Source: Scyliorhinus canicula
Lineage: Eukaryota
NCBI RefSeq assembly: GCF_902713615.1
Contig: NC_052157.1
Location: forward strand, 46,152,553-46,216,552
Direction: 5' to 3'
DNA length: 64,000 nt
The notes beneath the pieces were generated by a model, which did no database searches, was not told where the DNA came from, and saw nothing but the letters and a program-made list of their open reading frames with translations. Positions 953 through 58,397 of this stretch are shown here, in pieces (position 1 is the first letter of the stretch; each line of letters begins with the position of its first letter). Made by a program: the position numbers and the translations under genes.

Positions 953-3900
953 TCATAAGTTCAGTCTCTGAGGTGGGCGATGAACTCTGGTTGACCGCTG
1001 CAAGGGTGGGGCAATGGCTGGCACATCAGGATCCGGGAGGGCTGCAGCACAGTCAGGGGCAGGCAGAGTGACTGGAAGCGCCACACAGTCCACGGTAGGA
1101 GAGCTGGTCGGAGGATCCCGTGACGACCCTGGAACCAGGCAAAGAGCACGCCTGTTGCGGCGCCGAATGGATCTATCTGGCAAGCAGACAAGGACGGAGC
1201 GGGGGGCCACCTGCCTTAGAACAACAGCAGGCGCAGACCAGCCACCATCCGGGAGGTGGATGAGAACCTTGTCGCGTGGATGGATGGCGGGAAGGTCAGC
1301 AGCCCGTGAGTTGTAGGAAGTTTTCTGCTGCAGTTGAGACATGTGCATGCGGTGGAGCACAGGGACATAATCGAGGTTGGGAGTGAGAAATGACGGCACC
1401 ATCGTCCTGAGCAGTTCATTAGTAGCTGAGCAGGCGACAGGCCGTTGGAGAGCGGGGCAGAGCGATAGACTAGCAGAGCAAGATGGAAATCTGAGCCGGC
1501 GTCAGCGGCCTTGCTGGGGAGCCACTTAACGATGTGGACCCCCTTTTCCGCCTTCCCATTGGATTGGGGGTACAGGGGACTGGACGTGACGTGCTCGAAG
1601 TTGTAGTGGCGGGCGAAGCCGGCCCATTCCTGGCTCGCGAAACAGGGGCCATTGTCTGACATGACTATCAGCGAAATGCCATGGCAGGCAAACGTCTCCT
1701 TACACGCCCTGATCACAGCCGAGGATGTGAGATCGTGCAGCCTGATGACCTCCAGGTAACTGGAGAAGTAGTCGATGATGGTGACGTAATCCCTGCCCAA
1801 TGCGTGGAACAAGTCGATGCCCACTTTGGTCCAAGGTGATGTGACGAGCTCATGGGGCATCAGGGTCTCCCATGGTTGGGCGGGCTGAAAACACTGGCAG
1901 GTAGAGCAGTTGAGCATCACATTGGCGATGTCATCGTTAATGCCCAGCCAGTAGACGGCTTCTCTGGCCCTGCGGCGGCATTTCTCGATTCCTAAATGGC
2001 CTTCATGGAGTTGCTCCAACACTAGCTGGCGCATGCTTTGTGGAATGACGATGCGATCCAATTTCAGGAGCACCCCGTCGACAACCGCCAGGTCATCTTG
2101 GACGTTGTAAAATTGCGGGCATTGGCCCTTGAGCCACACCGTCTAACATTAGACGCATCACCCGCAGCAGAAGTGGATCAGCCGCTGCCTCACGGCGAAT
2201 TTGCATCAGTCGTGCATCCGAAGCTGTCAAATGGGAGGCTGCAAACTGAACTTGAGCATCTATTTGGCAGACGAAGCCGTCATGATCACACGGAGTTGTG
2301 ATTGACCTTGAGAGGGCATCGGCAACGGCAAGGTCCTTGCCAGGGGTATAGACCAGTTGAAAGTCATACCTGCGCAGCTTGAGTAAGATACGCTGGAGGC
2401 GGGGCGTCATGTCATTTAGGCCCTTTTTGATAATATTTACAAGTGGGCGGTGGTCGGTTTCAACCGTGAACTGCGGAAGTCCATAGACGTAGTCGTGGAA
2501 CTTCACGACTCCAGTGAGAAGACCGAGACACTTTTTCTCAATTTGCGCATAGCGCTGCTCTGTGGGCGTCATCGCCCGCGATGCATACGCAACGGGGGCC
2601 CATGACGAGGCCTCGTCTCGTTGCAGGAGCACGGCACCACTCCCTGACTGACTGGCATCAGTAGAGATTTTGGTCTCTTTGGTCGGGTCGAAAAAGGCCA
2701 ACACTGGAAAGCTTGACCTTCAGCTCCTGCCATTCACGTGGTCTGTGGTTTTGCGAATCTGGTCTCTGAGTGCTGTGGTGTGTGAGGCGATAAACTTCGG
2801 GATGAACTTCCCGAGGAACTTCACCATACCCAGGAACCGGAGGACCGCTTTCTTGTCCTCGGGTGTCTTCATGGACATGATTGCTGCAATCTTGTCCTTG
2901 TCCAGACGCACCCCCTGGTGGGAGATGTGATCCCCCAGAAACTTGATACTCGACTGTCCGAAGGAGCATTTGGCCCTATTGAGGCGGAGGCCGTATTCCT
3001 GGATGCGCCTCAAAACACACTTAAGGCGGACAATGTGTTTCTGCGGGGTGGTTGACCAGATAATAATGTCGTCGACATATACCGGACGCCGTCGATCCCC
3101 TCCATCATCTGCTCCATGATCCGATGGAAAACTTCGGATGCAGAAATGATGCCGAATGGCATCCGGTTGTAGCAGAACCTGCCAAAGGGTGTGTTGAACG
3201 TCCAAGCTTCCTGCTTGACTCATCTAGTTGGATCTGCCAGAAACCCTTCGAGGCATCCAGTTTTGAGAATCGTTTGGCGTGGGCCATCTCGGCCGTGAGC
3301 TCCTCACGTTTCGGAATCGGGTAGTGCTCCCGCATGATATTCTGATTCAGGTCTTTAGGATCAATAAAGATCCGCAGCTCGCCGGATGGCTTCTTGATGC
3401 AGACCATGGAGTTTACCCAGTCTGTGGGTTCCATGACCCTAGAAATGACTCCTTGGTCTTGGAGGTCCTGGAGCTGTTGCTTGAGGCGGTCCTTAAGGGG
3501 CGCTGGGACTCTGCGAGGTGCGTGAATGACAGGCGTGGCATTGGGCTTGAGTAAGATTTTGTACGTGTACGAGAGCGTGCCCATGCCTTCGAAGACATCA
3601 TTGTATTGCTGGATGATGGAGTTGAGTTACTCCCTGAAGTCTGTGTCAGAGGATGCAGACACATCGCTTGCAGAGAGAGAGTGTACTCTCTGCACTAAGT
3701 GGAGCAGCTTGCATGCCTGCGCACCAAGCAAGGAGGCTTTGAGGCAGCAACAATCTCAAAGGGGAGAATGATGTGTCACCTCAAGGCGGCAGGAGTCGCT
3801 GGCGGCGATGGCATTGCCATTGTAGTTCAGCAATTTACACGCAGATGGCAGGACAGCAGGCTGTACGCAGAGCTTGTGAAAATCAGAAGACGCAATGAGA

Positions 3901-11305: not shown

Positions 11306-13800
11306 CTTCCACCCTCCAAGTCAGTAGGCACCCCCTCTGCCGTCATCAGCATGGGTCTCCTGCGCCACTTCACTCGAGGCTGAGCTTCTGTCTGCGGTGG
11401 GTCTGGGTCAGGCGGTGTACACTGATTGGCTGGCCGCCCTTTGAAGGCCACCTCTGGAGGGCTATCGCCAGAACCTTGACCCTGGACACAACATCGTCCA
11501 TCTATTCGGACGCCTCTGTGTCCACATACCAGCCAAAGTCATCTTTCTCCTGCTGGTCCGGTCGATAAGTCATGGTCGGATGGGTTCCCTGGCTGAGGAG
11601 GGTTCCTAGAAAGCCGGAGGCATCAACGTCTCTGATTGGGCGCCGTGTAGTGCGGGCTCCCACTTCTCAAGGTGGCCCGCAATCCTTGCGTTGGATTTTT
11701 CCTTCAACCTCGACTCGACGGGAGACTGGTCCCATTCTATCTATTGTGATTCCTGTGAGTCAGAGTGCCCCGCCTCCTCCTGCATGTGTGGGTATTGTCT
11801 CCTGGTTGGGACACCCGACTTGGTGCCCAGCGATCATTGTGCCACCTCTGCCCCTCTTGCTGCACTTCCACTTTCCCACCCAGCTTTGGGAAAGTCAGGC
11901 TTAATCAGGTCCTGAGCCTGTGGCCCTTCAACAATTCCATTGGTTCCACCCCTGTTGTAATGTGCCGCGTAGTCCTGTAATTAAAAAGGAATCTTGCAGT
12001 TGCGTGTCTGTGAAGTCCGTGGTCTGCTTCTTTGTGGACCTCGTGGAGGTTATGACACACACAAACTGCTTATCGACAAATATTTGTTAAGGTTAGTTGG
12101 GAAAGTCTATCTGCGTTCCCAGGAAGATTAGACTGGCGATACTGGATCGCGTATGTGTGTGTGCTGACTAGAGCAATGTCCACCTCTGCATCCTGCTCGC
12201 TGCCATTGATAGAATCCCGGAATGAGGTCCAAGAATCATTGTTAATGGACAATGGTACATCATTAAAGTGAATTTCCTCCCAGACAGGAATGTGTAGAAC
12301 TGTTTTATGCCTAAAATGATTCCAAGAGCTTCTTTCTCTATCTGTGTTTAATTGCTTTTGGCTTTATTCAAAGTCCTGGACATGAAAGCTATCAGCTTCT
12401 CTTTACCTGTGGCCATTATTTGGGAAACAATCTCCCCAACCCCATAAGGTGTAGTGTCACATGGCAGTCGCAGGGGTAAATTTGGATCAAAATGTGTCAG
12501 GAATTCTAACTTGAGTAACCCCTCCTTGGCTTGCACGAATGCCCTCTCACATTGATCCACCCATTTCCACTTTTTATTTTGACACAGTAGATTGTGTAAG
12601 GGTTTTAGTATAGTCGTCAGATTAGGGAAAAACCTTCCGTAATGATTTAGTAAGACTATGAAAGTTTGAAATTGTTTCACATTCTGAGGTACAGGTGCCT
12701 TGGTAATGGCTTTGTCATTCAAAACCGACATAAGCAGTCCTTTGGCATCAAGGACATGACCCAGGTATTCAAGTGAAGGTTGGAAAAATTCCCATTTGTC
12801 TTCTTGGACTCTTAATCCATAATCTTCTAATCTCTGGAGTGTGGTATCTAGGTAGTGGAGATGTTCTTCCTTATTCTTTCCAGTAACCAAGATGTCATTG
12901 AAGTAACACTGGACTCCATCTTATCCGCTTAAAATTTGGTCCATAGCTGATTGAACAATGCTGGCACTGAAGTGATGCTAAATGGCAATCTTTTATATCA
13001 AGATAACCCTTTGTGTGTCTTAAGGGTCACGAACTGTTGTGAATCTGGACTCATGTTCATTTGAAGATATATTTGACTGCCGTCTATTTTACTGAAGTGT
13101 TGCCCAATGAACGAGTCAACAATCAAGGGCATAGGGTACAGGATTAATAGTGACTTTAAAATCGCCACAAATGCATATGAATCTATCTTTTTTCATCACG
13201 GGTACGATTAGTGTGACCCAATCACTCAAGTTAATGGGGTCAAGGACGCACTTTCTGACCAACCATTCTAATTCTGCTTCTACCTTGTGTTTGATTGCGT
13301 ATGGCACTGACTGAGTCTTTAAGCATCTCTCCTGACTTTCTTCATTCATCTTCAGCTTTACTGAGATATCCTTCATGCTTCGTAGCTCACTGTTGAAGGC
13401 ATTGGCATGTTGCTTCTAGGTTTTGGGTAGATTCGGAATGATTCGGAATCTGTCACAAGATTTATTTTGGCTCAATGCAATTTGATATTTTCCAGCCAAG
13501 TTCTTCCCATTAGTGCTGGCTAATTTCCTGTGACTGTATGCAAGGGCAAATCTGCTGTCTGCGCATTTAATTGTACTGTTACATTAATACAGCCGCTCAA
13601 TGGAACCACTTCTCCAGTATAGGTTTTTAACACTATCTTCCAAAGTTGCACAGCAATATGCCGAAACTTTGCTTGATAAACAGTTTGTGATACCAACGAG
13701 GTGACTGCCCTGTGTCCACCTCCATCTTACATCGGCTGACCATCCAGCAATGGAGTGACCCAGTAGTGGTTTGTTTCACCTGCAAAGGGCAGTGCCATTA
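11306..13800 (-). mobile_element. Decayed Gypsy pol fragments (probably two elements)
   Basis: RT/RNaseH peptide 12348-12890 (YLGHVLDAKGL...CDTTPYGVG); 13116-13376 (ICGDFKVTIN); pol 3' end and PPT next to the LTR at ~11305. Confidence 0.8.
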
Positions 13801-30727: not shown

Positions 30728-31207
30728 ATGGGAGTATGTCCCAGATCTTTATGCAAGGTGACCAAAATTGCACCCAGTGCTCAAGATGCAGTCTGACAAA
30801 TGTTCTGTGTGGTTGCAGCAAGTATTCCTTACTCTTATACTCCATTTATAACTTCAGTGGATGATCTGCAAGGATCCTGGAAATACAAAGTAGACGGAAT
30901 TTAAGGTTTATGCCAAGGATCTTACAGCTCATTTACTGAAGCTCAGGTAGATTATTGGGAACCAGCCCCATGGAAATAATTTTCCTCCACTTGCATGGTC
31001 AGGTGGATGTTAAAGATCTGAGCAAGGAGGTCTCCTCCTCTCCGAGTTGACCTTCAAAACACACCCTGGCATAACAAAGTCGAGGTGAGCTGGCCTTTGG
31101 ACTCAGCACTGTTTCTGGTCCATTTCCTCATATTGAATGGCCGCTGTGGTTCCTACGGAGCTCAGGGGTGCGGAGGTCAATTGCAGGGCATTTACCATCC
31201 ATCAGGC

Positions 31208-32433
31208 CACAAAGGTGATTGATGCAGGTAGGGCAGCGGATGTTGTCTATATGAACTTCAGTAAGGCCTTTGAAAAGGTCCCTCATGGCAGATGGGTACA
31301 AAAGGTGAAGTCACACAGGATCAGAGGTGAGCTGGCAAGATGGCTACAGAACTGGCGAGGTCATAGAAGGCAGAGAGTAGCAATGGAAGGGTGCTTTTCC
31401 GATTGGAGGGCTGTGACTAGTAGTGTACTGCAGGGATCAGTGCTGGGACCTTTGCTGTTCGTAGTATGTATAAATGATTTGGAGGAAAATGTAACTGGTC
31501 TGATTAGTAAGTTTGCAGACGACACAAAGGTTGGTGGAATTGCGGATAGCGATGAGGACTGTCAGAGGATACAGCAGGATTTAGATTGTTTGGAGACTTG
31601 GGCGGAGAGATGGCAGACGGTGTTTCATCCGGACAAATGTGAGGTAATGCATTTTGGAAGGTCTGATACAGGTAGGGAATATATAGTGAATGGTAGAACC
31701 CTCACGAGTATTGACAGTCAGAGAGATCTTAGTGTACAGGTCCACAGGTCACTGAAAGGGGCAACACAGGTGGAGAAGGTAGTCAAGAAGGCATACGGCA
31801 TGCTTGCCTTCATTGGCCGGGGCATTGAGTATAAAAATTGGCAAGTCATGTTGCAGCTGAATAGAACCTTAGTTAGGCCACACTGGGAGTATAGTGTTCA
31901 ATTCTGGTCGCCACACTACCAGAAGGATGTGGAGGCTTTAGAGAGGGTGCAGAAGAGAATTACCAGTTGACTGGTATGGAGGGCATTAGCTATGAGGAGA
32001 GGTTGAATAAACTTGGTTTGTTCTCACTGGAACGACGGAGGTTGAGGGGCAACCTGATAGAGGTCTACAAAATTTTGAGTGGCATAGACAGAGTGGATAG
32101 TTAAAGGCTTTTCCCCAGGGTAGAGGGGTCAATTACTAGGGGGCATAGGTTTAAGGTGTGAGGGGCAAGATTTAGAGTAGATGTGCGAGGTAAGCTTTTT
32201 ACACAGAGGGTAGTGGGTGCCTGGAACTCGCTGCCGGAGAAGGTGGTGGAAGCAGGGACGATCGTGACCTTTAAGAGACATCTTGATAAATACATGAATG
32301 GGATGGGAATAGAGGGATACGGACCCCGGAAGTGTAGAAGATTTTAGTTTAGATGGGCAGCATGGTCAGCGCAGGCTTAGAGGGCCGAAGGGCCTGTTCC
32401 TGTGCTGTACTTTTCTTTGTTCTTTGTTCTTTG
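31208..32433 (+). mobile_element. 5'-truncated CR1 LINE (RT domain + 3' UTR)
   Basis: ORF 31137-31970 with QGSVLGPLLF and KFADDTK; (TTCTTTG)n tail. Confidence 0.93.
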
Positions 32434-39896: not shown

Positions 39897-40224
39897 CATA
39901 GAATCTCCACAGCGCAAAAGGTGGTCTTTTGCCGATCGAGTCTGCACTGACCCTCTAAAAAAGCACCCTACATAGGCCCACTACCCCGCCCTTGCCCTGT
40001 GATTCAACTTGACCTGCACATCTCTGGACACTAAGGGGCAATTTATCATGGCCAATCCACCTAACCTGCCCATCTTTGGACTGTGGAAGGAAACCGGAGC
40101 TCTCGGAGCAAACCACAAGGAGAAATTGCAAACTCCGCGCAGTCACCCAAAGCTAGAACCGAACCGGGCCGGGTCCATGGCGCTGTGGGGCAGCAGTGCT
40201 AACCACTGTGTCACCATGTCGCCC
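39897..40224 (-). mobile_element. HE1/V-type SINE (diverged)
   Basis: Same head, body and tail architecture. Confidence 0.82.
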
Positions 40225-41663
40225 TCAAATATCCCAACACTCTTCACAAGTCATAATATTGACACAGAGGCGAGGAAAGTGACATGTCAATAGGTGACCA
40301 ACTACTTGGCAAAGAGGTAGGTGTGAAGGAGCATCGAGAGACAGGCAGCAAGGCTCAGAGAGTGAATTGCAGAGCTAAGTCCGAGGCCAGGCGTACAAAA
40401 GAGGTCAGAACTGGAGGAAAGCAGATACCTCATGGAGTTGTATGGCTGGAGGTGGTCACACAGAAAGAGATTGGCCTTGGAGACCATGGAGGGATTCAAA
40501 TACAAAATTGAGAAGTTTAAAATCGAGGTGCCAGTGCAGGTGGATGAGAGTAGAGGGGTTGGGATGAGTTTAAATTGTTAGGAATTGGCTCAATTGTGCT
40601 TCATATTTGGATACATTTTGGTTGAAGTGGTGAATATTCCTTTGTGACAATAAATGTGAAATTGAGAAGAAAAAAAATGACACTTTTTCCCAGAAGGTGA
40701 CTGGGATGCTGTCATGCTGAAACTCACCTCAACAGTTATCTCAGCTGCTCGACCCCAGAAATTGGCTCAAATAGTTTGGACACAAATGCTGCCTAGGTTA
40801 TAAGACTGGCGTCATTTATACTATAAATAACAAGCCTCAATATCTGAAAGGTATTAATAGAAATCTGTTAAGTGTGCTTGCAATTCTAAACCAACCATTT
40901 TTTTGAAGGCGTGATATTTTCATTCTCTGAGGACAAATGAACAACAGGTGCCCAGTGGTTTACGTTTTAAAGTGACGTGTTCGCCTGTCAAATCAGATAT
41001 TGCACCATTAATGAAGATGTCTGATAATGTTTGTAAATTAATTATTTTTTTCATATATTTTTTATTAGATTTTTCAATTTTTTTTACAAGTATACTGCAA
41101 TGGTTCTAAAAGGACATTCTTCAGCAAAAGTGAGGGGACTAACTCTGAGGCCCTACTGTCGTTACCAACAGCATACTATCTCCTCACTCATTAAGAGATG
41201 TATCCACCACCCACCCTTCGGCAATGGTGCCACTCAATTCTGCCATGCTTAAGACACAAATAATAAGAAACTGAAGCAAACCTGTGCCGGGCAATCAGGG
41301 TAAGTGACAGATTGTAGAGCGAATGGCACACAGAACGTGCAGAAGAGCTGCTATTCCCGCGCCCGCATCGTGCAATCCTGAAAATGGTTTCTGACCAGAC
41401 CACTTCCTCACCAAATAAAATCGCTCATAGAATCCCGACAGTGCAGAAGGAGGCTATTCGGCCCATCGGGTCTGTACTGACCCTCCGATAGAGCCCTCTA
41501 CATAGGCCTACTCCCTTGCTCCATCCCCATAACCCCACCCAACCCATTTGGACACGATGAGGCCATCGGCAGGACCGTAAAATCCCATCAGCAGGAAGGG
41601 CTGGAAAATTCACCCTGCTGAGTAAACAAAAGTAAAAAGATTGTTCATTAACTCCTGGAAGGA

Positions 41664-41842
41664 GGGACTGGCTTAGCACAGGGCTAAAGAACTGGCTTTT
41701 AAAGCAGACTAAGGCAGGCCAGCAGCACGGTTCAATTCCCGTACCAGCCTTCCTGAACAGGCGCCGGAATGTGACAACTAAGGGCTTTTCACAGTAACTT
41801 CATTTGAAGCCTACTTGTGACAATAAGCAATTTTCATTTCAT
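41664..41842 (+). mobile_element. Second tRNA-derived SINE family with L2-like tail
   Basis: TTAGCACAGGGCTAAA...CGGTTCAATTCCCG head; tail shared with 16057; ends in (TTTCA)n. Confidence 0.85.
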
Positions 41843-43703
41843 GAAATGGGGAATTTATATCCATTTAACATTGCGACATTCACTGGAACATCGTTTGTTA
41901 CTGATTGCTGTTCTGTGGCCTGCATATCTCATTGCAAATATACTTTCCTCATGGTGTTAGAATCAGTCATTACTTCAAGCTGTCCCCACCTGTTTTAAGA
42001 TGTGTATAGCTCGATAGGTCTCATGAAGAGGTTCTGAATCTTGTATAGTTAACAGTTTGGGTTTATTAATTACCTGGAATTCTAGATGTAACTACAGCAT
42101 AAGACCTAAGTTGGAAGTTGTCTCCATGCTTTCTTCTACACATATTCCTGCCCCGTACGAGACAGTGCACTAACTGGGCCATGTGTTCCTTTGCATCACA
42201 GTGTGGGCGGTAACAAAACCAGCCCCGCTTTAACTCCTCTTATGCCAGACCCTCAGACTACACCAACTTTGCTCCCACCCTCGCTTCCACTCTTACCTCT
42301 GTCCTGAAGTCCCTCTTTCCCTGACTCCAGCGCCCACTCTTCATCCTCAATGTCAAATTTACCTGGGGGTCCATTGCCACTCCCATGGGCTTCTTAAGAT
42401 GGGTCCCCTTTCCTTCACTCCTGCTCCCATTCTTAACTTACACTGAAGTTCAGGGCTTCTTTAACTGCCAAGCACACCGACCAACTCTTACCGCTGGATG
42501 GAGCCTAGTCAGTATGAAACCAGACAGATGGGGGGTGTCATTGTTTTTTAAATCTTTATTTATATTCACTGTATATTGTGTTTCTCCTTTAAAAATGTAT
42601 TTAAAGGTTATTTCATTTATCAATGTTGGCATTTTGGAATGTCCTGTATTTTAACAATGTTTCTGCTAATGAAGGTCCCAAAGGAAATAACTACAATATT
42701 TATTTCTTTGAGAGATTTATTTTACTTCAGCTAAGAATGCACAGTGCTGCATGTGTACAGGTTTTCAACTTGCACATTGATTTGACTAGGAATGAAATGT
42801 CCAACAGAATCCTCTGGTTCACTTAAAGTCAATTACGTGCGGGATTCCCCGGCCTCCCGGCCATGTGTTTGCCGCGGTGGGAGGTGGCGCGTTGTTCGCT
42901 GCTGGCGGGATTCTCTGTTCCTGTCGCTGCCAATGAGAATACCCATTGAAGCCAACCCATGATGGAGCATTCCGGCCTATAATTTGAAGCGATGACTTGC
43001 CGTGTTGTGGGGTGCCGATATGTCTCCCAACCGCTGATGGGGTTAGGGTGGCAATGTGGAGTATTCCAGATGTTTGTAGGGGGCGGGATTCTTCCAATTG
43101 CTGCTGGAGATGAGGAGCTGTGGGGGAGGGTGGTGCTATCCCAGAAACACAGGCACATTGGACTAAATTATTTTGAATGAGCTGAGACTGGATACAGACA
43201 GGCAATTCGCTGTTTTGCCAGCACATTCCCACCTCTGGGTCACCTTGGCAAATGCAGGTTTGGTGTAGGAGCAGGAAGGCCTCGCTGATGCCCTAATGAG
43301 GCTGCTCGGCCAATGCCAACTGGAATTTGCGGAGGGTAGAGATTCATCTACCATTCTGTGCCCCGCCCCGCTTTGGCTGCAGACCAGCCGCTGGAACGGG
43401 CTTGCAGCTGCAGCCAGGTTTAAAGTTAGCTTCCCAAATTAATCTTTCAAAAAAGGTGAGAGTCGGAAAATGTGAATAAAAATATTTTTTGAAATAACGG
43501 TGCATCTCGAGGCTCGCTCTCTGACTCTCTTGCCTGCATTCCCTCCTGAGGGTGTAGTCGCTGATGTCTTACGGTCCGACACCCTCCTTCAGCTTTAGGA
43601 GGATCTCTGTCCGCATTCAGGCAATGTGGATGGTGAGGATCTCTCTGGCTACTAATTAGCTAACTTTGTGAAAACAAATTGCACCAGCCAGCGCCACACA
43701 GAT

Positions 43704-43891
43704 GGGGCTGTTTAGCACAGGGCTAATTCGCTGGCTTTGAAAGCAGACCAAGCAGACCAGCAGCACGGTTCGATTCCCGTAACAGCCTCCCCGAACAGGA
43801 GCCGGAATGTGGCGACTAGGGGCTTTTCACAGTAACTTCATTTGAAGCCTACTCGTGACAATAAGCGATTTACATTTCATTTCATTTTCAC
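43704..43891 (+). mobile_element. Second tRNA-derived SINE family copy
   Basis: Homologous to 41664-41842. Confidence 0.88.
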
Positions 43892-44936
43892 ATTGTGGGG
43901 TTGGGACCCAGAAACTCAGTTGACATCGGTGTCCCAACCCCAGAATTAAAATGCAGCCCTACTAGAGCTGATGCTTTGATTGTTCTGGGTTTTTTTAGGA
44001 GCTTCTGACTGCAACTGAAATCTGTCAGCACCAGGGCGGCACGGTGCTGTAGAAAGTCTATGATTTGCTTTCCATTCGGCAGGCATTGGGCTTTCCACTC
44101 CTTGGACCTGCATGGCTGGAACTTGAATCGCTACACTCCAAAAAGAAGTGCCTGATTTTTCTTTGCAGAAACAAACCCTGGCAGTCTGTATATTTCCAGT
44201 CATGTTCCTTTGTACATATGATGCCGGCAAGCAGGAAGGAGGCTTTGTTTTGTTTGGAGAGGATGGAGTTTTGCAGGACAGGCTGGGAAATCAGTGGGAT
44301 CTGCGCAGGCTGCAGTATGCCACCAGCACTAATCCAGGACATATGCTTTCACTCTGTGAGCACTCCCTGCTGCTCCAGCTCAGGAAGGGCTTTGTTTAGT
44401 TAGACTGAAGCTGACCAAATCTGACGACTTTTCGCACTTTGGTTCGCCGTCCTCAATCCTGAATGCGGAATCGGCCCGGGGAATTGACGAAAGCGATGGT
44501 GACTGCATTTCGTCCAAGCTTTAAACCAAACGTTGGCTGAATGCGGACAGGGCAGATTCTGCATGTGACGTTCGCCACACTGTTTACTTCGCTTCAAATT
44601 AAACCACTTACAAATTCCCATTTGTCATCGGAGTGTTCCTGAGTGAACTCATACAACAGATTTGCTGAGGTTTGACATTTTATTCTAAATTGGAGCTTTT
44701 ATGATTTTTTTTAAAGTATGTTTCTGGAGGTTTTACATTTTCACGCACAAAACAACAAAACCACAAGAATGATACAGTACAGTAAGCAACAAAGAGTTTC
44801 AGCATACATGAATACAGAGGGACAACCAGCTCCATACAATTATTCTTGACACGACTTGATGCCTCTATAATCCGAATCAGAAAACAAGGGAGAAACAGGC
44901 TAAGGCGACAAGACATGGTAAAATTGAGCACACATT

Positions 44937-45249
44937 CATAGAATAGAACCCCTACAGTGCAGAAGGAGGCCATTCGGCCCACCGAGTCTGCACCAACCCT
45001 CCTAAAGAGCACTTTACCGAGGCCCATTCCCCTGCCCTATCCCCATCATCCCCGCGCACTGATCGTGACAATCCACCTAACCTGCACATCTTTGGACTAT
45101 GGGAGGGAACCTGAGCACCTCGAACAAACCCAGAAAGACGTGGGGGAGAAGGTGAAACTCCACAAAGATAGTTACCCAAGGTCGGAATTGAATCTGGGTC
45201 CCTGGCGCTGTGAGGCAGCAGTGCTAACCACTGTACCACCGTGCCGCCC
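44937..45249 (-). mobile_element. HE1/V-type SINE with CR1-type tail
   Basis: GGGCGGCACGGTGGTACAGTGG head on minus strand. Confidence 0.85.
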
Positions 45250-45711
45250 ATGCAATGATTTCTCGCAATCGCCACAAGAGTTCAGGATAATATTTTCATG
45301 CCATGTTCAGGAGAGCACCAATATACATATATCAATACACACCACAACCTCCTCTCCTTGGACACCAGACTCGTCTGCACTCCTGCAGGAACCAATCACG
45401 GATTCTTCATATCCACCCTGAGAAAAGAGGAAACATACAACAAAAACATGCAAGAAAACACTCCAATCTCAAGGACAAGTCAGGAGGAACCCAGTCCTCC
45501 CCAAAATACGTAATCTACCCAGGCCATCAAGGAGACAATCATGGATTCATAAATTCAAATACAACTCCACACCAATCAACTACCCATCACCCTGCCATGG
45601 GTCCATTCATCCTCATTGTAAATGAGATGTGGAGATGCCGGCGTTGGACTGGGGTGAGCACAGTAAGAAGTCTTACAACACCAGGTTAAAGTCCAACAGG
45701 TTTGTTTCAAA

Positions 45712-45746
45712 CACAAGCTTTCGGAGCACGGCTCCTTCTTCAGGTG
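45712..45746 (-). ncRNA. Minimal type I hammerhead ribozyme motif
   Basis: Minus strand CAC-CUGAAGA-A-GGAGC-CGU-GCUCC-GAAA-GC-UU-GUG. Confidence 0.75.
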
Positions 45747-46286
45747 AATGGAAAGGCTTGTTCCAGAAATGTTTATATAGACACAGTCAGAGATGCCCCG
45801 GAATGCGAGCACCTGCAGGCAATCAAATCATCAAAGATGCAGAGAGAGAGGTAACTCCAGGTTAAAGAGGTGTGAATTGTCCCAAGCCAGTTCAGTCGGT
45901 AGGCCTCTGCAAGTCCAGGCTTGTTGGTGGGGGCCGAATGTAATGCGACATGAATCCCAGATCCCGGTTGAGTCCGCATTCATGCGTGCGGAACTTAGCT
46001 ATAAGTTTTTGCTCAGCAATTGCGGAACTTATAGCTAAGTTCCGCACGCATGAATGCGGACTCAACCGGGATCTGGGATTCATGTCGCATTACATTCGGC
46101 CCCCACCAACAAGCCTGGACTTGCAGAGGCCTACCGACTGAACTGGCTTGGGACAATTCACACCTCTTTAACCTGGAGTTACCTCTCTCTCTGCATCTTT
46201 GATGATTTGATTGCCTGCAGGTGCTCGCATTCCGGGGCATCTCTGACTGTGTCTATATAAACATTTCTGGAACAAGCCTTTCCATT

Positions 46287-46321
46287 CACCTGAAGAAGGA
46301 GCCGTGCTCCGAAAGCTCGTG
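46287..46321 (+). ncRNA. Minimal type I hammerhead ribozyme motif
   Basis: CAC-CUGAAGA-A-GGAGC-CGU-GCUCC-GAAA-GC-UC-GUG: core boxes, 5-bp stem II, 3-bp stem I, palindromic AGCU stem III. Confidence 0.78.
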
Positions 46322-46702
46322 TTTGAAACAAACCTGTTGGACTTTAACCTGGTGTTGTAAGACTTCTTATTGTAAATGAGATAAGGGGCGCCCAAAAAGC
46401 AGTCTCCTGCCATATCCACAAAGGTTACAGCACATAATTAAAAAATAGGAGTAAAGCTGTCCACAGATCCATTTGACATGATTTTTGCTAGAACAGGATA
46501 ACAAGTCACTCTCAGCCTTATGCTCACACCTCGCAGGAGGAAAGACGACAACAAATAATCAACAACAATATCACTCGGGAGTAACATCCAGGATTATTGA
46601 CGAATTGCAGGATAATAACACCATCTATGTTGCTCGAAAAGGCCAAAGCTGTGACAGGATCATCAAACACTCCTCAGGACCTCTCAAGGAATAAAGCACT
46701 GT

Positions 46703-46909
46703 GGGCGGCACGGTAGCACAGTGGTTAGCACTTTTGCTTCAGAGCTCCAGGGACCCGGGTTTGATTCCTGGCTTGGGTCACTGTCTGTGCGGTGTCTGCC
46801 CATTCTCCTCGTGTCAGTGTAGATTTCCTCTAGGGTGCTCCATGTTCCCCCCCCCCCCCCCCCCCCCCCTCCCCCCCAAAAGATGCGATAGTTAGTCGAA
46901 TTGGACATA
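46703..46909 (+). mobile_element. HE1-head SINE (truncated, internal poly-C)
   Basis: GGGCGGCACGGTAGCACAGTGGTTAGCAC head. Confidence 0.8.
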
Positions 46910-48744
46910 CATGGTTTAGGGTCTCTCCCTCCTCCCCCACCTTTAACGGGGAACCTCAGATTCAGCGAGGCTCACGGGGAGTTCAATCAATGCCATTTTG
47001 TAAGATCCGGGTGATGACATCCCACCCCCCAAAGTCTAAAGAATCCTCAGAGGACTGTAGCGATGAAGGGCGCCGAACTTGCTTTGTCTCGGGCTGTGCA
47101 TCGTGAAACCCTGGCGCAGGATTCGGCATGGTACACCAGAGGGTGAATATCACTTCCAACTGGAATGCTGAATCAGAATCTCTGCCAGAGGCTGCTGCAT
47201 TGTGGACTCTCTGTCAGAGACCCACCAATGGATGGGTCTCCATCCCTGAATAAGTGGTGACGACCTCTCCCATGTCGACATCCTGATCCCCCTGCCGTTG
47301 TGAACGGGCCAGCTCAGGCATCTCGGTTCGGATGGACAAGATTTTTACATTCATGAGGAATTTTACAAAGGAATTGGTCACCTGGACCTAATGAGATCCA
47401 CGTGCTTATGCAATACTCAACCCTGAACGTGTATTTGGTGGGAAACCAGCCCTGACTGCCAGTCCTGGAGATTCACTTGGCCCAGTTTGCAAAATTTCGG
47501 ATATTCACTGTATCACTTGTATGAAGACCCAGGGTGGTCGATGTTGAACTGGGAAATTCCCTTGTAGGTTTTGGTTGTGGCGCACCATCCCACAGATGTC
47601 AGGAAATACCATACTAAGGTAGGTCCGAAGTCTCCGTCCCATCAGCATCTCAGCCAGGAGTACCCAATCACGGCGTGTGGGGTAATCCTGTAAATAAACA
47701 AGAACTGGGCCCAGCCCAGTGGTCATTAACCCGGAAGACTGTTTTTGTAGTCCAAGTTTGAACGTCTGGATCATCCTCTCTGCTAGCCCATTCGGTGCTG
47801 GGTGGCACGCCGAATGTGTCATACCCTGTTGGCCTTCAGAAACCAAGAGAACTCTTCGCTCGTAAAAGGTGTGCCATTGGCCATGACTAACACCTTGGGC
47901 GTGTCATGGGTGCAAAAAGACAAGCCTCACCTTTTGATCGTAGCCCTGGATGTGTCGCCCTCACCTTGTGGAACTCCAGCCATTTGGAATGGGTGTCAAT
48001 TAAGAGGAGGAACCTGAACCCCTGAAACGGCCCGGCAAAATCGGCATGCAACCGTGCCCATGGCCGTCCTGGCCATTCCCAAAGGTGAAGGGGTGTGGCT
48101 GGCAGAAGCTTTTGGTGCTCCTGACGGATGAAACGTTGTTGGGCCAATCGTTCAATGTCAACATCCAGGCCTGGCCACCAGACGTAACTGCGCGCTGACA
48201 TTTTCATTTTTGACACCCTGGATGTCCATGGTGGAGATATTGCAGGATGAAAGTGTGGCTTTTTACCAGGACGAATACATGTGCACCCTCCACACTAAAC
48301 TCAGACATCTTGGATGAGTAAGCCCGTAATTCACCTGGGAGCTGTCAACGCTGTCCACCATATAACACGACATGTCGAGCCTTGGAAAGAACTGGATACG
48401 TTTGGTTCTACTCATGGATCCTGGGTGCAGTGACCAGCAAGATGTCCATCAGGATGGCGACAATGTCGTCCATCCTGGGAGGAGATGGGGAGGTAGTCAG
48501 CAAAGGTAGCTGGCTCAAAGCATCAGCATGTGCAATTTGAGTGTTCGACTTATGCTCGAACGAGTATTCAGAGGCGGCCAATAAAAGAGCCCACCACAAG
48601 ATCCTCTTGAAAGTGATAGGTGGGATGACCTGTCCTCCTTGAATAAACAGAGCAACAGTTTGTGGTTGGTGATGAGGGTAAGTTGGCACCATACACATAT
48701 TGGTGGATTTTCTGAACTATGAAAACCACCGCCAGGCCCTCCTT
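46910..48744 (-). mobile_element. Decayed Gypsy 3' half (RNaseH, integrase, PPT, partial LTR)
   Basis: ARSYVWWPG...RLHADFAGPF (47887-48216), NGLAERMIQTFK (47505-47846), HADALSQLP (48408-48698); PPT GGGGGGTGGGA at ~47020-47030. Confidence 0.85.
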
Positions 48745-49054
48745 ATAATAATAATAATCTTTATTGTCACAAGTAGGCTTACATTAACACTTCAATGACG
48801 TTACTGTAAAAATTCGCCAATCGCCACATTCTGGTGCCTGGTCAGGTACACTGAGGGAGAATTCAAAATGTCCAAATGACCTAACAGCACGCTTCTCGGG
48901 ACTTGTGGGAGGAACCCAGAGCACCCATAGGAAACCCATGCAGACACGGTGAGAATGTGCAGACTCCGCACAGAAAGTGGCCCAAGCCAGAATCGAACCT
49001 GGGACCCTGGAGTTGTGAAGCAACTGTGCTAGCCACTGTGTGCCCCTGCTGCCC
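48745..49054 (-). mobile_element. HE1-head SINE with L2-like tail
   Basis: Same architecture as 16057-16361; (ATT)n end. Confidence 0.85.
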
Positions 49055-49604
49055 ACAAAAATCTGCTGTTTAATATCTTACAACACCAGGTTAAAGTCCA
49101 ACATGTTTATTTGGAATAACGAGCTTTCGGAGCGTATTTAAAGAACGTGATGCGATTGCCGTTTTTTAACATTGAACTGGTTGGACCATGCCTGCGCCAA
49201 CCAGTTTTATTGGTGATCCTGCTGAAGAGGATACAGAAAGTTGGTCCTTAAATTACCCAAGAGAAGAAAAGGTGTTCCCTGGATTGTCCAGTCCTTGCAA
49301 ATAGCACCTTAGTGGCGTGATGTACCTTGAAGGTGCAGTTGGTGAGGCAGTCAGTTGGTGTGTGAGCTGCTTGGAGTGTGTTAAATAACGAGGAAAATTT
49401 AATAGACTTCAAGAGCGTTCAGGGCAGGTGGAATGGGCGGACAGGTGGCAGCTGAAGTTTAACACTTTGTGAGGTGATGCAGTTTGGTAGGAAGGATGAG
49501 ACAAGACAATACTTGTTAAATGCCAAACTTTTTTTACAGGGGTGGCATTAAGAGAGAGTTATGGGGCGGTCTTGCATTAACCTTTGAAGGTGGTGGGACA
49601 GGTT

Positions 49605-49949
49605 AACATAGAACATAGAACAGTACAGCACAGAACAGGCCCTTCGGCCCTCAATGTTGTGCCGAGCCATGATCACCCTACTCAAACCCACGTATCCACC
49701 CTATACCCGTAACCCAACAACCCCCCCTTAACCTTATTTTTATTAGCACACTACGGGCAATTTAGCGTGGCCAATCCACCTAACCCGCACATCTTTGGAC
49801 TGTGGGAGGAAACCGGAGCACCCGGAGGAAACTCACGCACACAGGGGGAGGACGTGCAGACTCCACACAGACAGTGACCCAGCCGGGAATCGAACCTGGG
49901 ACCCTGGAGCTGTGAAACATTTATGCTAACCACCATGCTACCCTGCTGC
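49605..49949 (-). mobile_element. HE1/V-type SINE with CR1 tail, inserted in an old CR1 fragment (~49370-50240)
   Basis: (TTCTATG)n terminus; flanks show decayed CR1 RT sequence. Confidence 0.88.
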
Positions 49950-50354
49950 AACAAAGCAGTTAATAAAGCATAGATGCTTTCAGACTTTGAAATTGAGGCA
50001 GAGAATACAAAAGCAAGAAAGATATGCTAAATCGGCGCAAACTACTCCTCAGGCCTATTGAGGTCCAATTCTGTGCACCAAATAAAACGACTTTGGAGAG
50101 GACAAAGAAAAGATTTCCTAGAAAAGTTCCTGAAATAAGTGATTCAGTACATGGAGAGACTGGAAAAGCTACGGTCGTTCACCAGTGAGCGGAGAAGGCT
50201 GAAAGGAGATTTGATGGAGGTGTTTAAAACCTTGAAGTAATTAGGAGATGGTTAGCTTACTTGGCTCAGAGTGTGGTGCAGACTAGCACCAAACAGTCTG
50301 GGCTCAATCTTTGCGTCAGCTGAGGTAATTCTTGGGGCCTTTACTGTGACCCAA

Positions 50355-50526
50355 AATGAAATGAAATGAATGAAAATTGCTTATTGTCACGAGTAGGCTT
50401 TAATGAAGTTACTGTGAAAGCCCCTAGTCGCCACATTCCGGCGCCTGTTCGGGGAGGCTGTTACGGGAATTGAACTGTGCTGCTGGCCTGCTTGGTCTGC
50501 TTTCAAAGCCAGCGATTTAGCCCTGT
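50355..50526 (-). mobile_element. Second tRNA-derived SINE family copy
   Basis: Reverse complement of 43704-43891. Confidence 0.88.
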
Positions 50527-50531
50527 GCAAT

Positions 50532-50943
50532 ACAGTGCAGAAGGGGGCCATTAGGCCGATTGAGTCTGCACCGGCCCTTACAAAGAGCACCCTACTGAAG
50601 CCCACGTATCTACCTTTAGTTTTTTTCCATGTCGGTGCAACATCGAGGGCCAAAGGGCCTGTACTGCGCTGTATCGTTCTATGTTCTATGTTCTACCCTA
50701 TCCCTGTAACCCAGTAACCCCCACTTAACATTTTTTGGACACTAAGGACAATTTAGCATGTCCAATCCACCTAACCCGCACATCTTTGGACTGTGGGAGG
50801 AAACCTGAGCACTCGGAGGAAACCCACGCAGACACGGGGAGAACGTGCTGACTCCGCACAGACAGTGACCCAGCCGGGGATCGAACCTGGGGCCCTGGAG
50901 CTATGACGCAACTGTGCTAGCCACTATGCTACCGTGCTGCCCA
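50532..50943 (-). mobile_element. HE1/V-type SINE carrying a ~70-bp CR1 3' end in opposite orientation (~50625-50695)
   Basis: SINE body split by GTCGGTGCAACATCGAGGGCC...TTCTATGTTCTA. Confidence 0.82.
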
Positions 50944-51255
50944 AGGATTAACTGCCCTTGGACAATGAAGACACCAGGGAGTGAAATAATGAGGAACTGT
51001 TGATGAAGAGAGGCACAGATTGTAGGTGATCCAGATGCCACATGAAGAAGATCTGTTTTGCATAATGAAAGGTTTGGAATGCACTGCCTGATGTGGTGGT
51101 GAAAACAGATTCAAAAGGAATATTGATAAATTGTTGATTAGTTTCACTGCATCAACCCTGCTATTTTTCCCTAACTGCAAGCTAACTGTTTGGGTATAGT
51201 CAGCATTTTCATCCACCGACTTGTGGCTTTGTGTGCTTTTCCAGTGTCTGCAGCA

Positions 51256-52157
51256 AGAAGTCTTACAACACCAGGTTAAAGTCCAACAGGTTTATTTAGA
51301 ATCATGAGCTTTTGGAGCATGGCTAAGTGAAGAGGTAGGTTATACAAACACAGCATATGTAGACAAAGCCAATGATACAAGGTGATACTTTGCAGATAAT
51401 TAAGTCTTTACAGGTCCAGACGGTGCAACTGGAGAGAGGGATAATCACAGGCTAAAGAGATGTGAATTGTCTCAAGCCAGGAGAGTTGGTAGGATTTTGC
51501 AAGCCCAGGCCAGATGGTGGGGGGTCCAGTCATTGTCCAGTACTTCCCCAGGGCGGAGAAACTGCAACATCTTCTTCGAAGCCTTCAACACGTCATCAAT
51601 GAAGACGAACATCTTGCCAAGGTGATCCCCACAACCCCACTACTTGCCTTCAAACAACCGTGCAACCTCAAACAGACCATTGTTTGTAGCGAACTACCCA
51701 GCCTTCAAGAGAACTGCGACCACGGCAACACACAACCCTTGTCATGACAACCTCTGCAAGACGTGCCAGATCATCGACATGGATACCATGATTGCACGTG
51801 AGAGCATTATCCACCAGGTATGCGGTACATACTCGTGCGACTCGGCCAACGTTGTCTACGTCATACACTGCAGGAAAGGATGTCCCGAAGCGTGGTACAT
51901 TGGCGAGACCATGCAGATGCTGCGACAACGGATGAGCAGACACCACACGACAATCGCCAGGCAGGAATGTTCCCTTGCAGTCGGGGAACACTTCAGCAGT
52001 CAAGGACATTCAGCCTCTGATCTTCGGATAAGCGTTCTCCAAGGCGGTCTTCAGGACGCACGACAATGCAGAATCGCTGAGCAGAAACTGATAGCCAAGT
52101 TCCGCACACATGAGTACGGCCTCAACTGGAATCTTGGATTCTTGTCTCACTACATTT
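51256..52157. mobile_element. Penelope-like element with 5' inversion; GIY-YIG endonuclease fragment
   Basis: ORF 51644-52159: CKTC...VVYVIHCRKGCPEAWYIGET...LRQR...EHF...EQKLI...GLN; 3' UTR inverted at 51256-51523. Confidence 0.9.
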
Positions 52158-53579: not shown

Positions 53580-53707
53580 CTGATTCACCTGAGGAAGGAG
53601 CTGCGCTCCGAAAGCTCGTGTTTGAAACAAACCTGTTGGATTTTAACCGGGTGTTGTAAGACTTCTTACTGTGCTCACCCCAGTCCAACGCCGGCATCTC
53701 CACATCA
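53580..53707 (+). mobile_element. Very short Penelope 3'-end insertion
   Basis: Matches the reverse complement of 45629-45748; 12-bp TSD TTTCTTTTTCTT (53568-53579 / 53708-53719). Confidence 0.88.
53586..53620 (+). ncRNA. Minimal type I hammerhead ribozyme motif
   Basis: CAC-CUGAGGA-A-GGAGC-UGC-GCUCC-GAAA-GC-UC-GUG; differs from 46287 only at N7 and the stem II loop. Confidence 0.78.
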
Positions 53708-53735: not shown

Positions 53736-54654
53736 ATGGTAGGGAAGGCAGTACAATGTTCCTCCTGCAGAATGTTTGAGGTGAGGGACGCCATCAGTGT
53801 CCCTGCTGATTTCACCTGTGGGAAGTGCACCCATCTCCAGCTCCTCAGAAACCGCGTTAGGGAACTGGAGCTGGAACTGGATGAACTTCGGATCATTCAG
53901 GAGGCAGAGGTGGTCATAGATAGGAGCTTCAGGGATGTAGTTACACCGAAGAATCAAGATAGATGGGTGACGGTGAGAGGGGCTGGGGGTAAGCAGTCAG
54001 TACAGGGATCCCCTGTGGTCGTTCCCCTTAGTAACAAGTATACCGTTTTGGTTACTGTTGGGGGACGACGACTTACCAGGGGTAATCCATGGGGTACAGG
54101 TCTCTGGCACAGATTCTGTCCCTGTTGCTCAGAAGGGAAGGGGGGAGAGGAATGGAGCATTAGTCATTGGAGACTCCATAGTTAGGGGGATAGATAGGAG
54201 ATTCTGTGGGAACAAGAGAGACTCGCGGTTGGTGTGTTACCTCCCAGGTGCAAGGGTCCACGATGTCTCCGATCGTGTTTTCGGGATCCTGAAGGGGGAG
54301 GGGGAGCAGCCCCAAGTCGTGGTCCACATAGGTACCAATGACATAAGTAGGAAAAGGGATAGGGATGTAAGGCAGGAATTCAGGGAGCGAGGTTGGAAAC
54401 TTAGATCTAAGACAAACAGACTTATTATCTCTGGGTTGTTACCCGTGCCACTTCCTGGCGAGACGAGGAATAGGGAGAGAGAGCAGTTGAACACGTGGCT
54501 ACAGGGATGGTGCAGGAGGGAGGGTTTCAGATTCCTGGATAATTGGGGCTCTTTCTGGGGTAGGTGGGACCTCTACAAACGGGCTGGTCTACACCTGGAC
54601 CAGAGGGGTACCCATATCCTGGGGGGGGGGGGGGGGGGGGGGCGAATTTGCTAA
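53736..54654 (+). pseudogene. CR1 ORF1: zinc finger/coiled coil + SGNH esterase, frameshifted
   Basis: CSSC...CGKC, LRNRVRELELELDEL; GDSIVRG, VHIGTND, GLHL blocks. Confidence 0.9.
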
Positions 54655-54744
54655 TGCTGTTTGGGAGGGTTTAAACAAGTTCAGCAGGGGAATGGGAACC
54701 TGAATAGTAGCTCCAGTACACAGTAGGTTGAGAGTAGTGAGGTC

Positions 54745-57700
54745 ATGAGTAAGGTTTCAAAGTTGCAGAAGTGTACCGGCAGGAAGGAAGGTGGTTTAAA
54801 GTGTGTCTACTTCAATGCAAGGAGCATCTGGAATAAGGTGGGTGAACTTGCGGCATGGGTTGGTACCTGGGACTTCGATGTTGTGGCCATTTCGGAGACA
54901 TGGATAGAGCAGGGACAGGAATGGTTGTTGCAGGTGTCGGGGTTTAAATATTTCAGTAAGCTTAGGGAAGGTGGTAAAAGAGGGGGAGGGGTGGCATTGT
55001 TAGTCAAGGACAGTATTACGGTGGCAGAAAGGACGTTTGATGAGGACTCATCTACTAAGGTAGTATGGGCTGAGGTTAAAAACGGGAAAGGAGAGGTCAC
55101 CCTGTTAGGGGTTTTCTATAGACCTGCGAAAAGTTCCAGAGATGTAGAGGATAGGATTGCAAAGATGATTCTGGATAGGAGCAAAAGTAATAGGTTATTT
55201 GTTATGGGGGACTTTAACTTTCCAAATATTGACTGGTAACGCTATGTTCGAGCACTTTAGATGGGTCCGTTTTTGTCCAATGTGTGCAGGAGGGTTTCCT
55301 GACACAGTATGTAGATAGGCCAACGAGAGGCGAGGCCGTATTGGATTTGGTACTGGGTAATGAACCAGGACAGGTGTTAGATTTGGAGGTAAGTGAGCAC
55401 TTTGGTGATAGTGACCACAATTCGATTATGTTTACTTTAGTGATGGAAAGGGATAGGTATATACCGCAGGGCAAGAGTTATATCTGGTGGAAAGGCAATT
55501 ATGATGCGATGAGGCAAGACTTAGGATGCATCAGATGGGCAGGGAAATTGCAGGGGATAGGCACAATGGAAATGTGGAGCTTGTTCAAGGAACAACTACT
55601 GCGTGTCCTTGATAAGTATGTACCTGTCAGGAAGTGGTCGCGCAAGGGAACCGTGGTTTACTAAAATAGTTGAAACACTTGTCAAGAGGAAGAAGGAGGC
55701 TTATGTAAAGATGAGACGTGAAGGTTCAGTTACGGCGCTTGAGAGTTACAAGTTAGCTAGGAAGGACCTAAAGAGAGAGCTAATAAGAGCCAGGAGGGGA
55801 CATGAGAAGTATTTGGCAGGTAGGATCAAGGATAAACATAAAGGTTTCTATAGATATGTCAGGAATAAAAGAATGACTAGGGTAAGAGTAGGGCCAGTCA
55901 AGGACAGTGGTGGGAAGTTGTGCGTGGAGTCCGAGGAGATAGGAGAGATGCTAAATGAATATTTTTCATCAGTATTCACGCAGGAAAAAGACAATGTTGT
56001 CGGGGAGAATACCGAGATACAGGCTACTAGACTAGAAGGGCTTGAGGTTCATAAGGGGGAGGTGTTAGCAATTTTGGAAAGAGTGAAAATAGATAAGTCC
56101 CCTGGGTCGGATGGGATTTATCCTAGGATTCTCTGGGAAGCTAGGGAGGTGATTGCTGAGCCTTTGGCTTTGATCTTTAAGTCATCTTTGTCTACAGCAG
56201 GAGTTCTCAACCTTTTTTAACCCATGGACCCCTTTTCCTCTTAATTTTTTTTTGTGGACCCCCATAGCCATTCCACAGAAAAAAAAGCTTCTTATATGCG
56301 TGGTAAACTAATCCTAAAGTCCATCTACCTTACCATGAGGGTTGGAAATGGATTAGCGGTATTTTCATACGTTGCCAAACTTATTCTAATATGAAAAGTA
56401 ATGAAAAAAACTTTTTACTGACTAAATTGAATTAAATTACTCTAAAAATAACCAATTCATATCAAATATACACAGTTTCTAGTGATTACTGTGTTAAATC
56501 ATTCATTAAATTTGTCAAGGAGAAACGTGGCATAAGCGTCAGGTCAACCGTGGGTATTTAATAAGCTGCTTCTGTCATTAAAGGTCCTCTGGGCTGTTCC
56601 TAGGGGACAATAGCCCGGGCAATCTTCAACAACAACTGTCATTAAAGCACAATAAACCCATTTGTCATCAACCGGTATGGATTTTTTTTTCTCAGAATAC
56701 AGTACCACAAAAATAAACACAGCAAATGCACCTTTTTGGTTCTGAGCCCCTTCAGCCCTCAAGGTAAATTAGATAGATTATAATCTCTCTTTGACCTTTG
56801 TCAGTGCGAGAGAGAGAGTGAGAGAGAGAGAAAGGTGAATTTTCATCATGAAAACAAACATTTTTTTCTTCTACTTGATTCTCAGTAATAACAATTGTTC
56901 TGAAGTAGAATTACTCTATGGACCACTAAAATATCACCGTGGACCCCCAATTCGGTATTTTTTTTGTGTGGACCCCCAGTAATGTTACATGGACCCCCAG
57001 GGTCCATGTGGACCCCGTTTGAGAACCACTGGTCTACAGGAATAGTGCCAGAAGACTGGAGGATAGCAAATGTTGTCCCGTTGTTCAAGAAGGGGAGTAG
57101 AGTCAACCCCGGTAACTATAGACCAGTGAGCCTTACGTCTGTTGTGGGCAAAGTCTTGGAAAGGTTTGTAAGAGATAGGATGTATAATCATCTGGAAAGG
57201 AATAATTTGATTAGAGATAGTCAGCACCGTTTTGTGAAGGGTAGGTCGTGCCTCACAAACCTTATTGAGTTCTTTGAGAAGGTGACCAAACAAGTGGATG
57301 AGGGTAAAGCAGGTGATGTGATGTATATGGATTTCAGTAAAGTGTTTGATAAGGTTCCCCACGGTAGGTTATTGCCGAACATACGGAGGCATGGGATTCA
57401 GGGTGATTTAGCAGTTTGGATCAGAAATTGGCTAGCTGGAAGAAGGCAAAGGGTGGCGGTTGATGGGAAATGTTCAGACTGGAGTCCAGTTACTAGTGGT
57501 GTACCACAAGGATCTGTTTTGGGGCCACTGCTGTTTGTCATTTTTATAAACGACCTGGAGGAGAGCGTAGAAGGGTGGGTGAGTAAATTTGCAGATGACA
57601 CTAAAGTCGGTGGAGTTGTGGACAGTGCGGAAGGATGTTACAAGTTACAGAGGAACATAGATAAGCTGCAGAGCTGTGCTGAGAGGTGGCAAATGGAGTT

Positions 57701-58397
57701 TAATGCAGGAAAGTGTGAGGTGATTCATTTTGGAAGGAATAACAGGAAGACAGAGTACTGGGCTAATGGTAAGATTCTTGGTAGTGTGGATGAGCAGAGA
57801 GATCTCGGTGTCCATATACATAGATCCTTGAAAGTTGCCACCCAGGTTGAGAGGATTGTTAAGAAGGTGTACAGTGTATTAGCTTTTATTGGTAGAGGGA
57901 TTGAGTTTCGGAGCCATGAGGTCATGTTGCAGCTGTACAAAACTCTGGTGCGGCCGTATTTGGAGTACTGCATGCAATTCTAGTTGCCGCATTATAGGAA
58001 GGATGTGGAAGCATTGGAAAGGGTGCAGAGGAGATTTACCAGAATGTTGCCTGGTATGGAGGGAAGATCTTATGAGGGAAGGCTGAGGGACTTGAGGCTG
58101 TTTTCGTTAGAGAGAAGGAAGTTAAGAGGTGACTTAATTGAGGCATACAAGATGATCAGAGGATTAGATAGGGTGGACAGTGAGAGCCTTTTTCCTCGGA
58201 TGGTGATGTCTAGCACGAGGGGACATAGCTTTAAATTGAGGGGAGATAGATACAGGACAGATGTCAGAGGTAGGTTCTTTACTCAGAGAGTAGCAAGGGC
58301 GTGGAATGCCCTGCCTGCAACAATAGTGGACTCGCCAACACTAAGGGCATTCAAATGGTCATTGGATAGACATATGGATGATAAGGGAATAGTGTAG
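54745..58397 (+). pseudogene. CR1 ORF2: APE endonuclease + reverse transcriptase, disrupted
   Basis: NARSI, ISETW, YRP, GDFNFP, LDLVL, SDHN; NYRPVSLTS, GVPQGSVLGP, FADD; hAT insertion, frameshifts and a stop at 57983. Confidence 0.93.
56198..57031. mobile_element. Non-autonomous hAT (Charlie-like) element
   Basis: TIR CAGGAGTTCTCAA / TTGAGAACCACTG; 8-bp TSD GTCTACAG (56190-56197 / 57032-57039); subterminal TGGACCCC repeats. Confidence 0.92.

Follow-up and report, generated by a model that had tools for sequence, protein, structure and literature searches.

A polymorphic head-to-head Penelope insertion in Scyliorhinus canicula and what its young family suggests about two-ended priming

A near-perfect palindrome at 45615-46382 of the window, the whole 64,000-nucleotide stretch of DNA analysed here, raises the question of how one transposon insertion comes to hold two opposed copies of the same sequence, and whether the product has a role of its own. 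A sequence-only reading had described arms of 344 bp, an 18-nt spacer and a 14-bp target-site duplication. The geometry proved exact: the arms base-pair throughout with a sole mismatch (45715 A / 46318 C), the spacer occupies 46008-46025, and the window holds two copies of the duplicated motif ATTGTAAATGAGAT, one at 45615 and one at 46369, and no more. An inverted-repeat check of 40000-52000 returned this palindrome as the longest and most complementary one in that interval. That reading had missed a 35-nt element tail, present on the left arm only. The first 14 nt of the spacer (46008-46021) continue the element sequence, so that the left copy extends from 45629 to 46021, and the remaining four (46022-46025) are a filler lying inside an 11-nt direct copy of 45987-45997. 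Three nt of the left duplication and 1 nt of the right one are common to the element, so the true stagger of the cut is 10-14 nt. At 45715 the mismatch reflects a CpG-type change that only the left arm carries (1 of 104 arms compared). Coordinates are collected in Table 1.

Table 1. Features of the palindromic insertion and its left flank, in window coordinates.
Feature	Position	Strand	Remarks
Left flank: pieces of old dispersed repeats, the element's landing place	45255..45614	.	71-85% to other copies
Left target-site duplication, 14 bp	45615..45628	+	Last 3 nt also match element beyond the tail; single copy in empty allele
35-nt tail, this arm only	45629..45663	-	Ends correspond to two inferred reverse-transcription start sites; tail and sites as described in PMC11167929
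Tail-bearing 5'-truncated copy of element 3' end	45629..46021	-	Matches 0 to -392 of the full-length copy L080:5085-8064 at 99.7% identity
Left palindrome arm, 344 bp	45664..46007	-	Pairs with right arm
Minimal hammerhead motif, minus-strand copy	45712..45746	-	Predicted cleavage-site base 45715 is the single CpG-type change; numbered by hand against PMC4209133
Internal hairpin 45992-46007 (6-bp stem, 4-nt loop) and source of 11-nt junction duplication	45987..46007	.	From sequence
18-nt spacer: 14 nt of unpaired left copy and 4-nt templated filler	46008..46025	.	Junction genome-unique
Right arm: tail-less 5'-truncated copy of element 3' end	46026..46369	+	Element -378 to about -35
Minimal hammerhead motif	46287..46321	+	Core 46290-46296, 5-bp stem II, GAAA 46311-46314, palindromic AGCT, predicted cut after 46318
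Right target-site duplication	46369..46382	+	First base common to element

Both arms are 3' ends of a family which its domain order would place in the Penelope/Poseidon clade, and they are 99.7% identical to the 3' end of the full-length copy L080. This parent encodes a single open frame of 878 aa with a reverse transcriptase domain (RVT_1) above cut-off and, at its C-terminus, a GIY-YIG domain, whose motif is visible in the translation and whose profile score lies just below cut-off (PF01541, E 5e-4, 20.7 bits against 22.6). Partial tandems forming pseudo-LTRs were found at L072, L080, L083 and L107, and the optional 30-40 nt tail and inverted 5'-truncated copy are represented at the window locus by the 35-nt tail on one arm. 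Among 113 arms only 162 substitutions were counted in 108,957 bases (0.15%), and a comparison of 104 arms revealed no minor allele carried by three or more of them, a pattern which on sequence grounds is that of a very young burst. A MITE or fold-back DNA transposon was considered and rejected, since in that class the terminal inverted repeats extend to both ends and one fixed unit recurs at many sites, whereas here the ends differ by the tail and a genome-wide exact search returned the centre junction once, with no second copy. The uniqueness of that junction also rules out spread of the window palindrome as a unit.

The claim of a single recent Penelope insertion with a true target duplication is borne out by the structure, the family match and an empty allele. 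The latter, with the single copy of the duplication that had been anticipated, was recovered from one sample (S1) in both of its runs, X1 and X3, where one contig each joins 45614 directly to 46369; an old paralogous repeat (L017) also crosses the insertion site with one motif copy. The filled allele is represented by one X2 contig covering 46350-46455, which includes the right junction and 19 element letters, and the X2 sample may be the source of the window. Among the contigs listed, none crosses the centre or the junction on the left. The filled allele thus has weak read support, and the case against a fold-back sequencing or assembly artefact rests on anatomy: flanks are unique on both sides, the duplication is single in the empty allele, the tail is one-sided, the filler is templated, there is one mismatch of CpG type, and the same anatomy recurs at dozens of loci. 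Despite the lack of spanning contigs among those listed, we consider an artefact exceedingly improbable. The insertion is real and polymorphic, being absent from at least one haplotype of another sample, and can be used as a presence/absence marker. Three runs labelled as other organisms (X8, X18, X19) contained 0.31-0.36 of the sampled words from 45629-46369, about one arm's share; word sampling of this kind is compatible with close relatives, host DNA or horizontal transfer.

Palindromes of this type are the normal product of the family in this genome and are not special to the window locus. An exact-pattern search with a 34-mer from the arm gave 4,897 matches in the genome (G000) and none for a control 34-mer. 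Among 100 listed matches there were 30 head-to-head pairs within 6 kb, against 0.15 expected by chance, and a single pair in the opposite order. Extrapolation gives about 1,470 to 1,500 inverted insertions genome-wide, about a third of them near-symmetric. Our main sample was the first 98.5 Mb of one contig, in which the 100 matches were grouped into 65 regions; 60 of these and the window were analysed first and the last five later.

Two 2.9-kb palindromic insertions 1.12 Mb apart on G000:C1 (L053:403-3322 and L055:475-3395, at about 1.72 and 2.84 Mb) contain the same 28-nt centre junction, found nowhere else in the genome, with different target duplications and no private variants in common; this leaves two readings, copying of a completed palindrome as one piece and conversion of its centre from the neighbour. 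On the same contig, L098:5108-6116 lies 72 kb from L097:466-1519 and consists of a tail-less copy of the latter, about 135 nt of its genomic flank and an inverted 98-nt flank piece. It is likely a local copy of a truncated element made from read-through RNA.

The ends of the inverted insertions follow a simple rule. One end is tailed and the other tail-less in 47 of 49 young insertions, and in none are the two ends alike. In the first set, 36 of 38 inverted junctions had one end that reached the tip of the tail and one that stopped about 35 nt before it, the exceptions (L077 and L082) having one end at neither site. The later sets agree (2/2 in the last five regions and 9/9 young insertions among 17 further loci), as do 23 of 24 older insertions scored by BLAST segment, with one unclear exception (L157). 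Under free choice of ends the probability of one of each is at most 1e-10 for 33 insertions. Single-arm copies end at either site, from which it follows that each start site can prime alone. One such copy lies in the window itself (53583-53706); its 121-nt arm carries the tail and has a target duplication, rich in pyrimidines, of about 12 bp.

Arm lengths were compared in 33 of the 38 insertions of the first set. We excluded L055, whose junction is that of L053, L075 with its chimeric arm, an older insertion in L054, and also L077 and L082. The longer arm was the tailed one in 13 cases and the tail-less one in 20, often by more than 1 kb. Nonetheless, the 5' ends of the two arms fell within 25 nt of each other in 11 of the 33 (permutation mean 1.0, maximum 8 in 100,000), and in seven of these near-equal cases it was the tail-less arm that was longer. 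Centre junctions across loci display overlaps of 1-5 nt or short fillers. Seven of ten fillers of at least 6 nt match nearby element sequence at or near the control floor (p 0.04-0.08) and three do not, which is suggestive only of templating from nearby element sequence. Several arms (L078, L089, L105) end near the internal hairpin at element -403 to -378 (window 45987-46021), a possible hot spot for stalling or joining.

Arms of the same locus also have rare substitutions in common. Ten such cases were counted in 34,781 positions within loci, with 0.03 expected, and three in 3,169,124 positions between loci; arms of inverted pairs also differ from one another at 63 positions, gaps included. 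Six arm-shared variants were searched genome-wide. The double variant of L090 was carried by its own two arms only, and such a private pair fits copied polymerase errors or conversion as well as it fits a lost source. Three variants present on both arms of L169 recur in L170, which lies on a different contig; as far as sequence comparison can tell, this suggests a minor source lineage. A variant at -437 was present on both arms at four of six carrier loci, and one at -50 on both arms in four of 24 usable loci (46 fetched), a test of limited use, as these four resemble one older subfamily. The searched variant was on one arm only at L166, L173 and L175, at the first of which the -437 variant was confined to one arm though two other variants were common to both. 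Later arm-to-arm conversion may add to the sharing but leaves the lineage variants unexplained. A 4-kb palindrome was observed at L168:295-4270; each of its arms ends at -1997, and the four substitutions are all common to both.

The window locus is a real and recent head-to-head insertion that unites two truncated 3' ends of the element. We think it somewhat probable that a single event produced it: each strand of a staggered cut would have primed on one RNA, using one of its two start sites each, and the two cDNAs would have been joined at the centre afterwards. Nicks in the two strands would be set 10-14 nt apart by the enzyme. Priming at the outer site with a 3-nt match, the left 3' end would copy to -392; the right 3' end would start from the inner site, which lies about 35 nt deeper, and copy to -378. 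Both cDNAs would end close to one point on a shared template. The right copy may then snap back on its own 6-bp hairpin, gain 4-5 templated bases and join the left copy. The reverse transcriptase is not known to have RNase H activity, so the RNA would persist for a second round of copying. Such twin priming from two sites is supported by the one-each ends, the freedom of either arm to be longer, the coupled stops and the shared rare variants. In the published in vitro system a Poseidon protein was shown to cut the two strands and to extend each of them, with two start sites that bound the tail, and it is predicted to form a dimer (PMC11167929). No difference in start site between the strands is reported there, so the in vitro work alone does not give the one-each rule. 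For Penelope-like elements (PLEs) more broadly, we see about an even chance that two-ended priming is obligate, a dimeric enzyme copying one RNA twice with one active site at the outer and one at the inner start site. Every inverted insertion would hence have one tail, the same template variants on both arms and often a joint stop; the family would preserve the outcome of about 1,500 reactions of this kind, and at least one completed palindrome would have been copied, junction included, to a site 1.1 Mb away.

At the window locus the junction also allows another reading, in which the left copy jumped a short way backwards and then folded back, a version which sequence alone would not separate from the snap-back of the right copy. 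Near-equal arms and shared variants are likewise predicted by fold-back, and the variants do not distinguish a single RNA from a pair of RNAs that came from one source locus. In one variant of this idea twin priming is followed by capture: the longer cDNA folds back, its sense strand pairs with a short second cDNA, and most of one arm is copied from the other. This accounts for the one-each ends, near-equal arms, junction microhomology of 1-5 nt and shared variants, and it fits the private pair of L090 and the equal 2-kb arms of L168 with all four substitutions shared. The rate of shared variants, about 3e-4 per base, is also close to typical reverse-transcriptase error rates. However, several of the shared variants mark source lineages, making copied errors unnecessary, and by our reading near-symmetric insertions show no greater density of sharing than lopsided ones; sharing also occurs 15 nt from a tail-less end. 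We regard capture as possible but doubtful. Junction palindromes of head-to-head PLEs have been explained in print by a single priming event followed by self-priming on the antisense template (PMC3846280), with the outer ends set later by the endonuclease, to whose resolution the tail has been ascribed (PMC8557442). Near-equal arms and shared variants agree with this too. A cDNA that started from the inner site would, however, offer no tail for copying, so that under plain fold-back the longer arm has to be the tailed one, and the tail-less arm is longer in 20 of 33 insertions and in seven of the 11 near-equal ones. The former count rules out plain fold-back from the tailed arm as a general rule. 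Both boundaries of the tail are, moreover, start sites in vitro (PMC11167929), and self-priming with later resolution appears improbable to us.

Whether the locus acts as a source of hairpin RNA was a further suggestion of the sequence-only reading, in which the hairpin could silence the family and switch off its ribozyme through antisense pairing. The structural part stands, in that a read-through RNA is predicted to fold into a very stable hairpin (360 pairs, -731 kcal/mol); the locus is not special in this respect, as palindromes are what the family normally produces. Inverted Penelope copies able to give double-stranded RNA did yield siRNAs in transformed Drosophila, and these are reported to have silenced the element inefficiently (PMC3681739). 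The window insertion is missing from at least one haplotype of another sample, is by extrapolation one of hundreds of near-symmetric copies, and is surrounded by transposon debris. A Pfam scan of 32 of the window's 59 long ORFs returned only retroelement-type domains and no host gene, although short exons would escape such a scan. Remains of LTR-type retroelements (integrase, RNase H, reverse transcriptase) and LINEs (esterase-like ORF1, endonuclease, reverse transcriptase) lie at 956-3626, 12351-12920, 31137-31967 and 53977-57980, and an older head-to-head Penelope remnant, 69-84% identical to the young family, at 51251-52156. Weak Rfam matches to microRNAs at the palindrome centre were rejected because any hairpin gives such matches. 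A working hairpin source, which would be compatible with the other readings, seems to us quite improbable, and silencing or a ribozyme off switch special to this locus is predicted to be unlikely.

The ribozyme part of that suggestion concerns a minimal hammerhead motif, of the kind described in PMC4209133, in each arm. Read by hand, 46290-46318 has the core, the unpaired base before stem II, the G10.1-C11.1 pair and the palindromic 15.2-16.2 positions listed in that paper. Rfam returned nothing at gathering score in the window, hammerhead included, and as a monomer the region folds no better than shuffled sequences (z -0.12). Read-through RNA of the locus would contain one sense hammerhead of this minimal type. 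A minimal hammerhead showed no monomer cleavage in the case reported in PMC4209133, and cleavage is described as dispensable for insertion in vitro (PMC11167929). With minimal hammerheads regarded as needing a dimer, and with cleavage dispensable in vitro, the idea of a built-in off switch is weak. The product of the insertion is a non-coding remnant and an ordinary member of a described kind.

That kind is established in print: PLE insertions with an inverted truncated copy and a tail at one end have been published (PMC8557442; PMC3846280). Head-to-head insertions of endonuclease-bearing PLEs with an inverted pLTR, Pen2a_Av (PMC3846280) and those in Fig. 2 of PMC8557442, resemble the window locus in the inverted 5'-truncated copy, the 30-40 nt tail at one end, the target duplication and the palindrome at the junction. 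Unlike them, both arms here are short remnants without an ORF, the target duplication is longer (14 bp, and mostly 11-15 bp across loci, against the 8-10 bp given for rotifer PLEs), and the family is large and young enough for statistics. Poseidon PAc of Anolis (PMC11167929) has a comparable reverse transcriptase with C-terminal GIY-YIG, a hammerhead near the 3' end and genomic ends at two adjacent sites, but its start codon is placed at the hammerhead, whereas the likely start codon here lies just after the tail. The literature we searched lacked most subscription papers, older Penelope reviews included, and in it we found no two-ended, one-RNA model, which may nevertheless be in print. In twin priming of L1 elements both nicks prime and the cDNAs are joined with microhomology, with the second primer annealing internally so that the pieces do not duplicate one another. 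Here, by contrast, both copies start at fixed 3' sites and the same sequence is copied twice.

The structure itself is therefore already known, and it is the family statistics, rather than the window locus, that carry weight. The origin of the inverted copies and one-sided tail of PLEs was called undefined in PMC8557442, and the family pattern bears on this open question of how PLEs make them. The regularities measured in the family (a single tail for each insertion, no fixed longer arm, coupled stops and shared template variants) provide sharp predictions for the existing in vitro Poseidon system.
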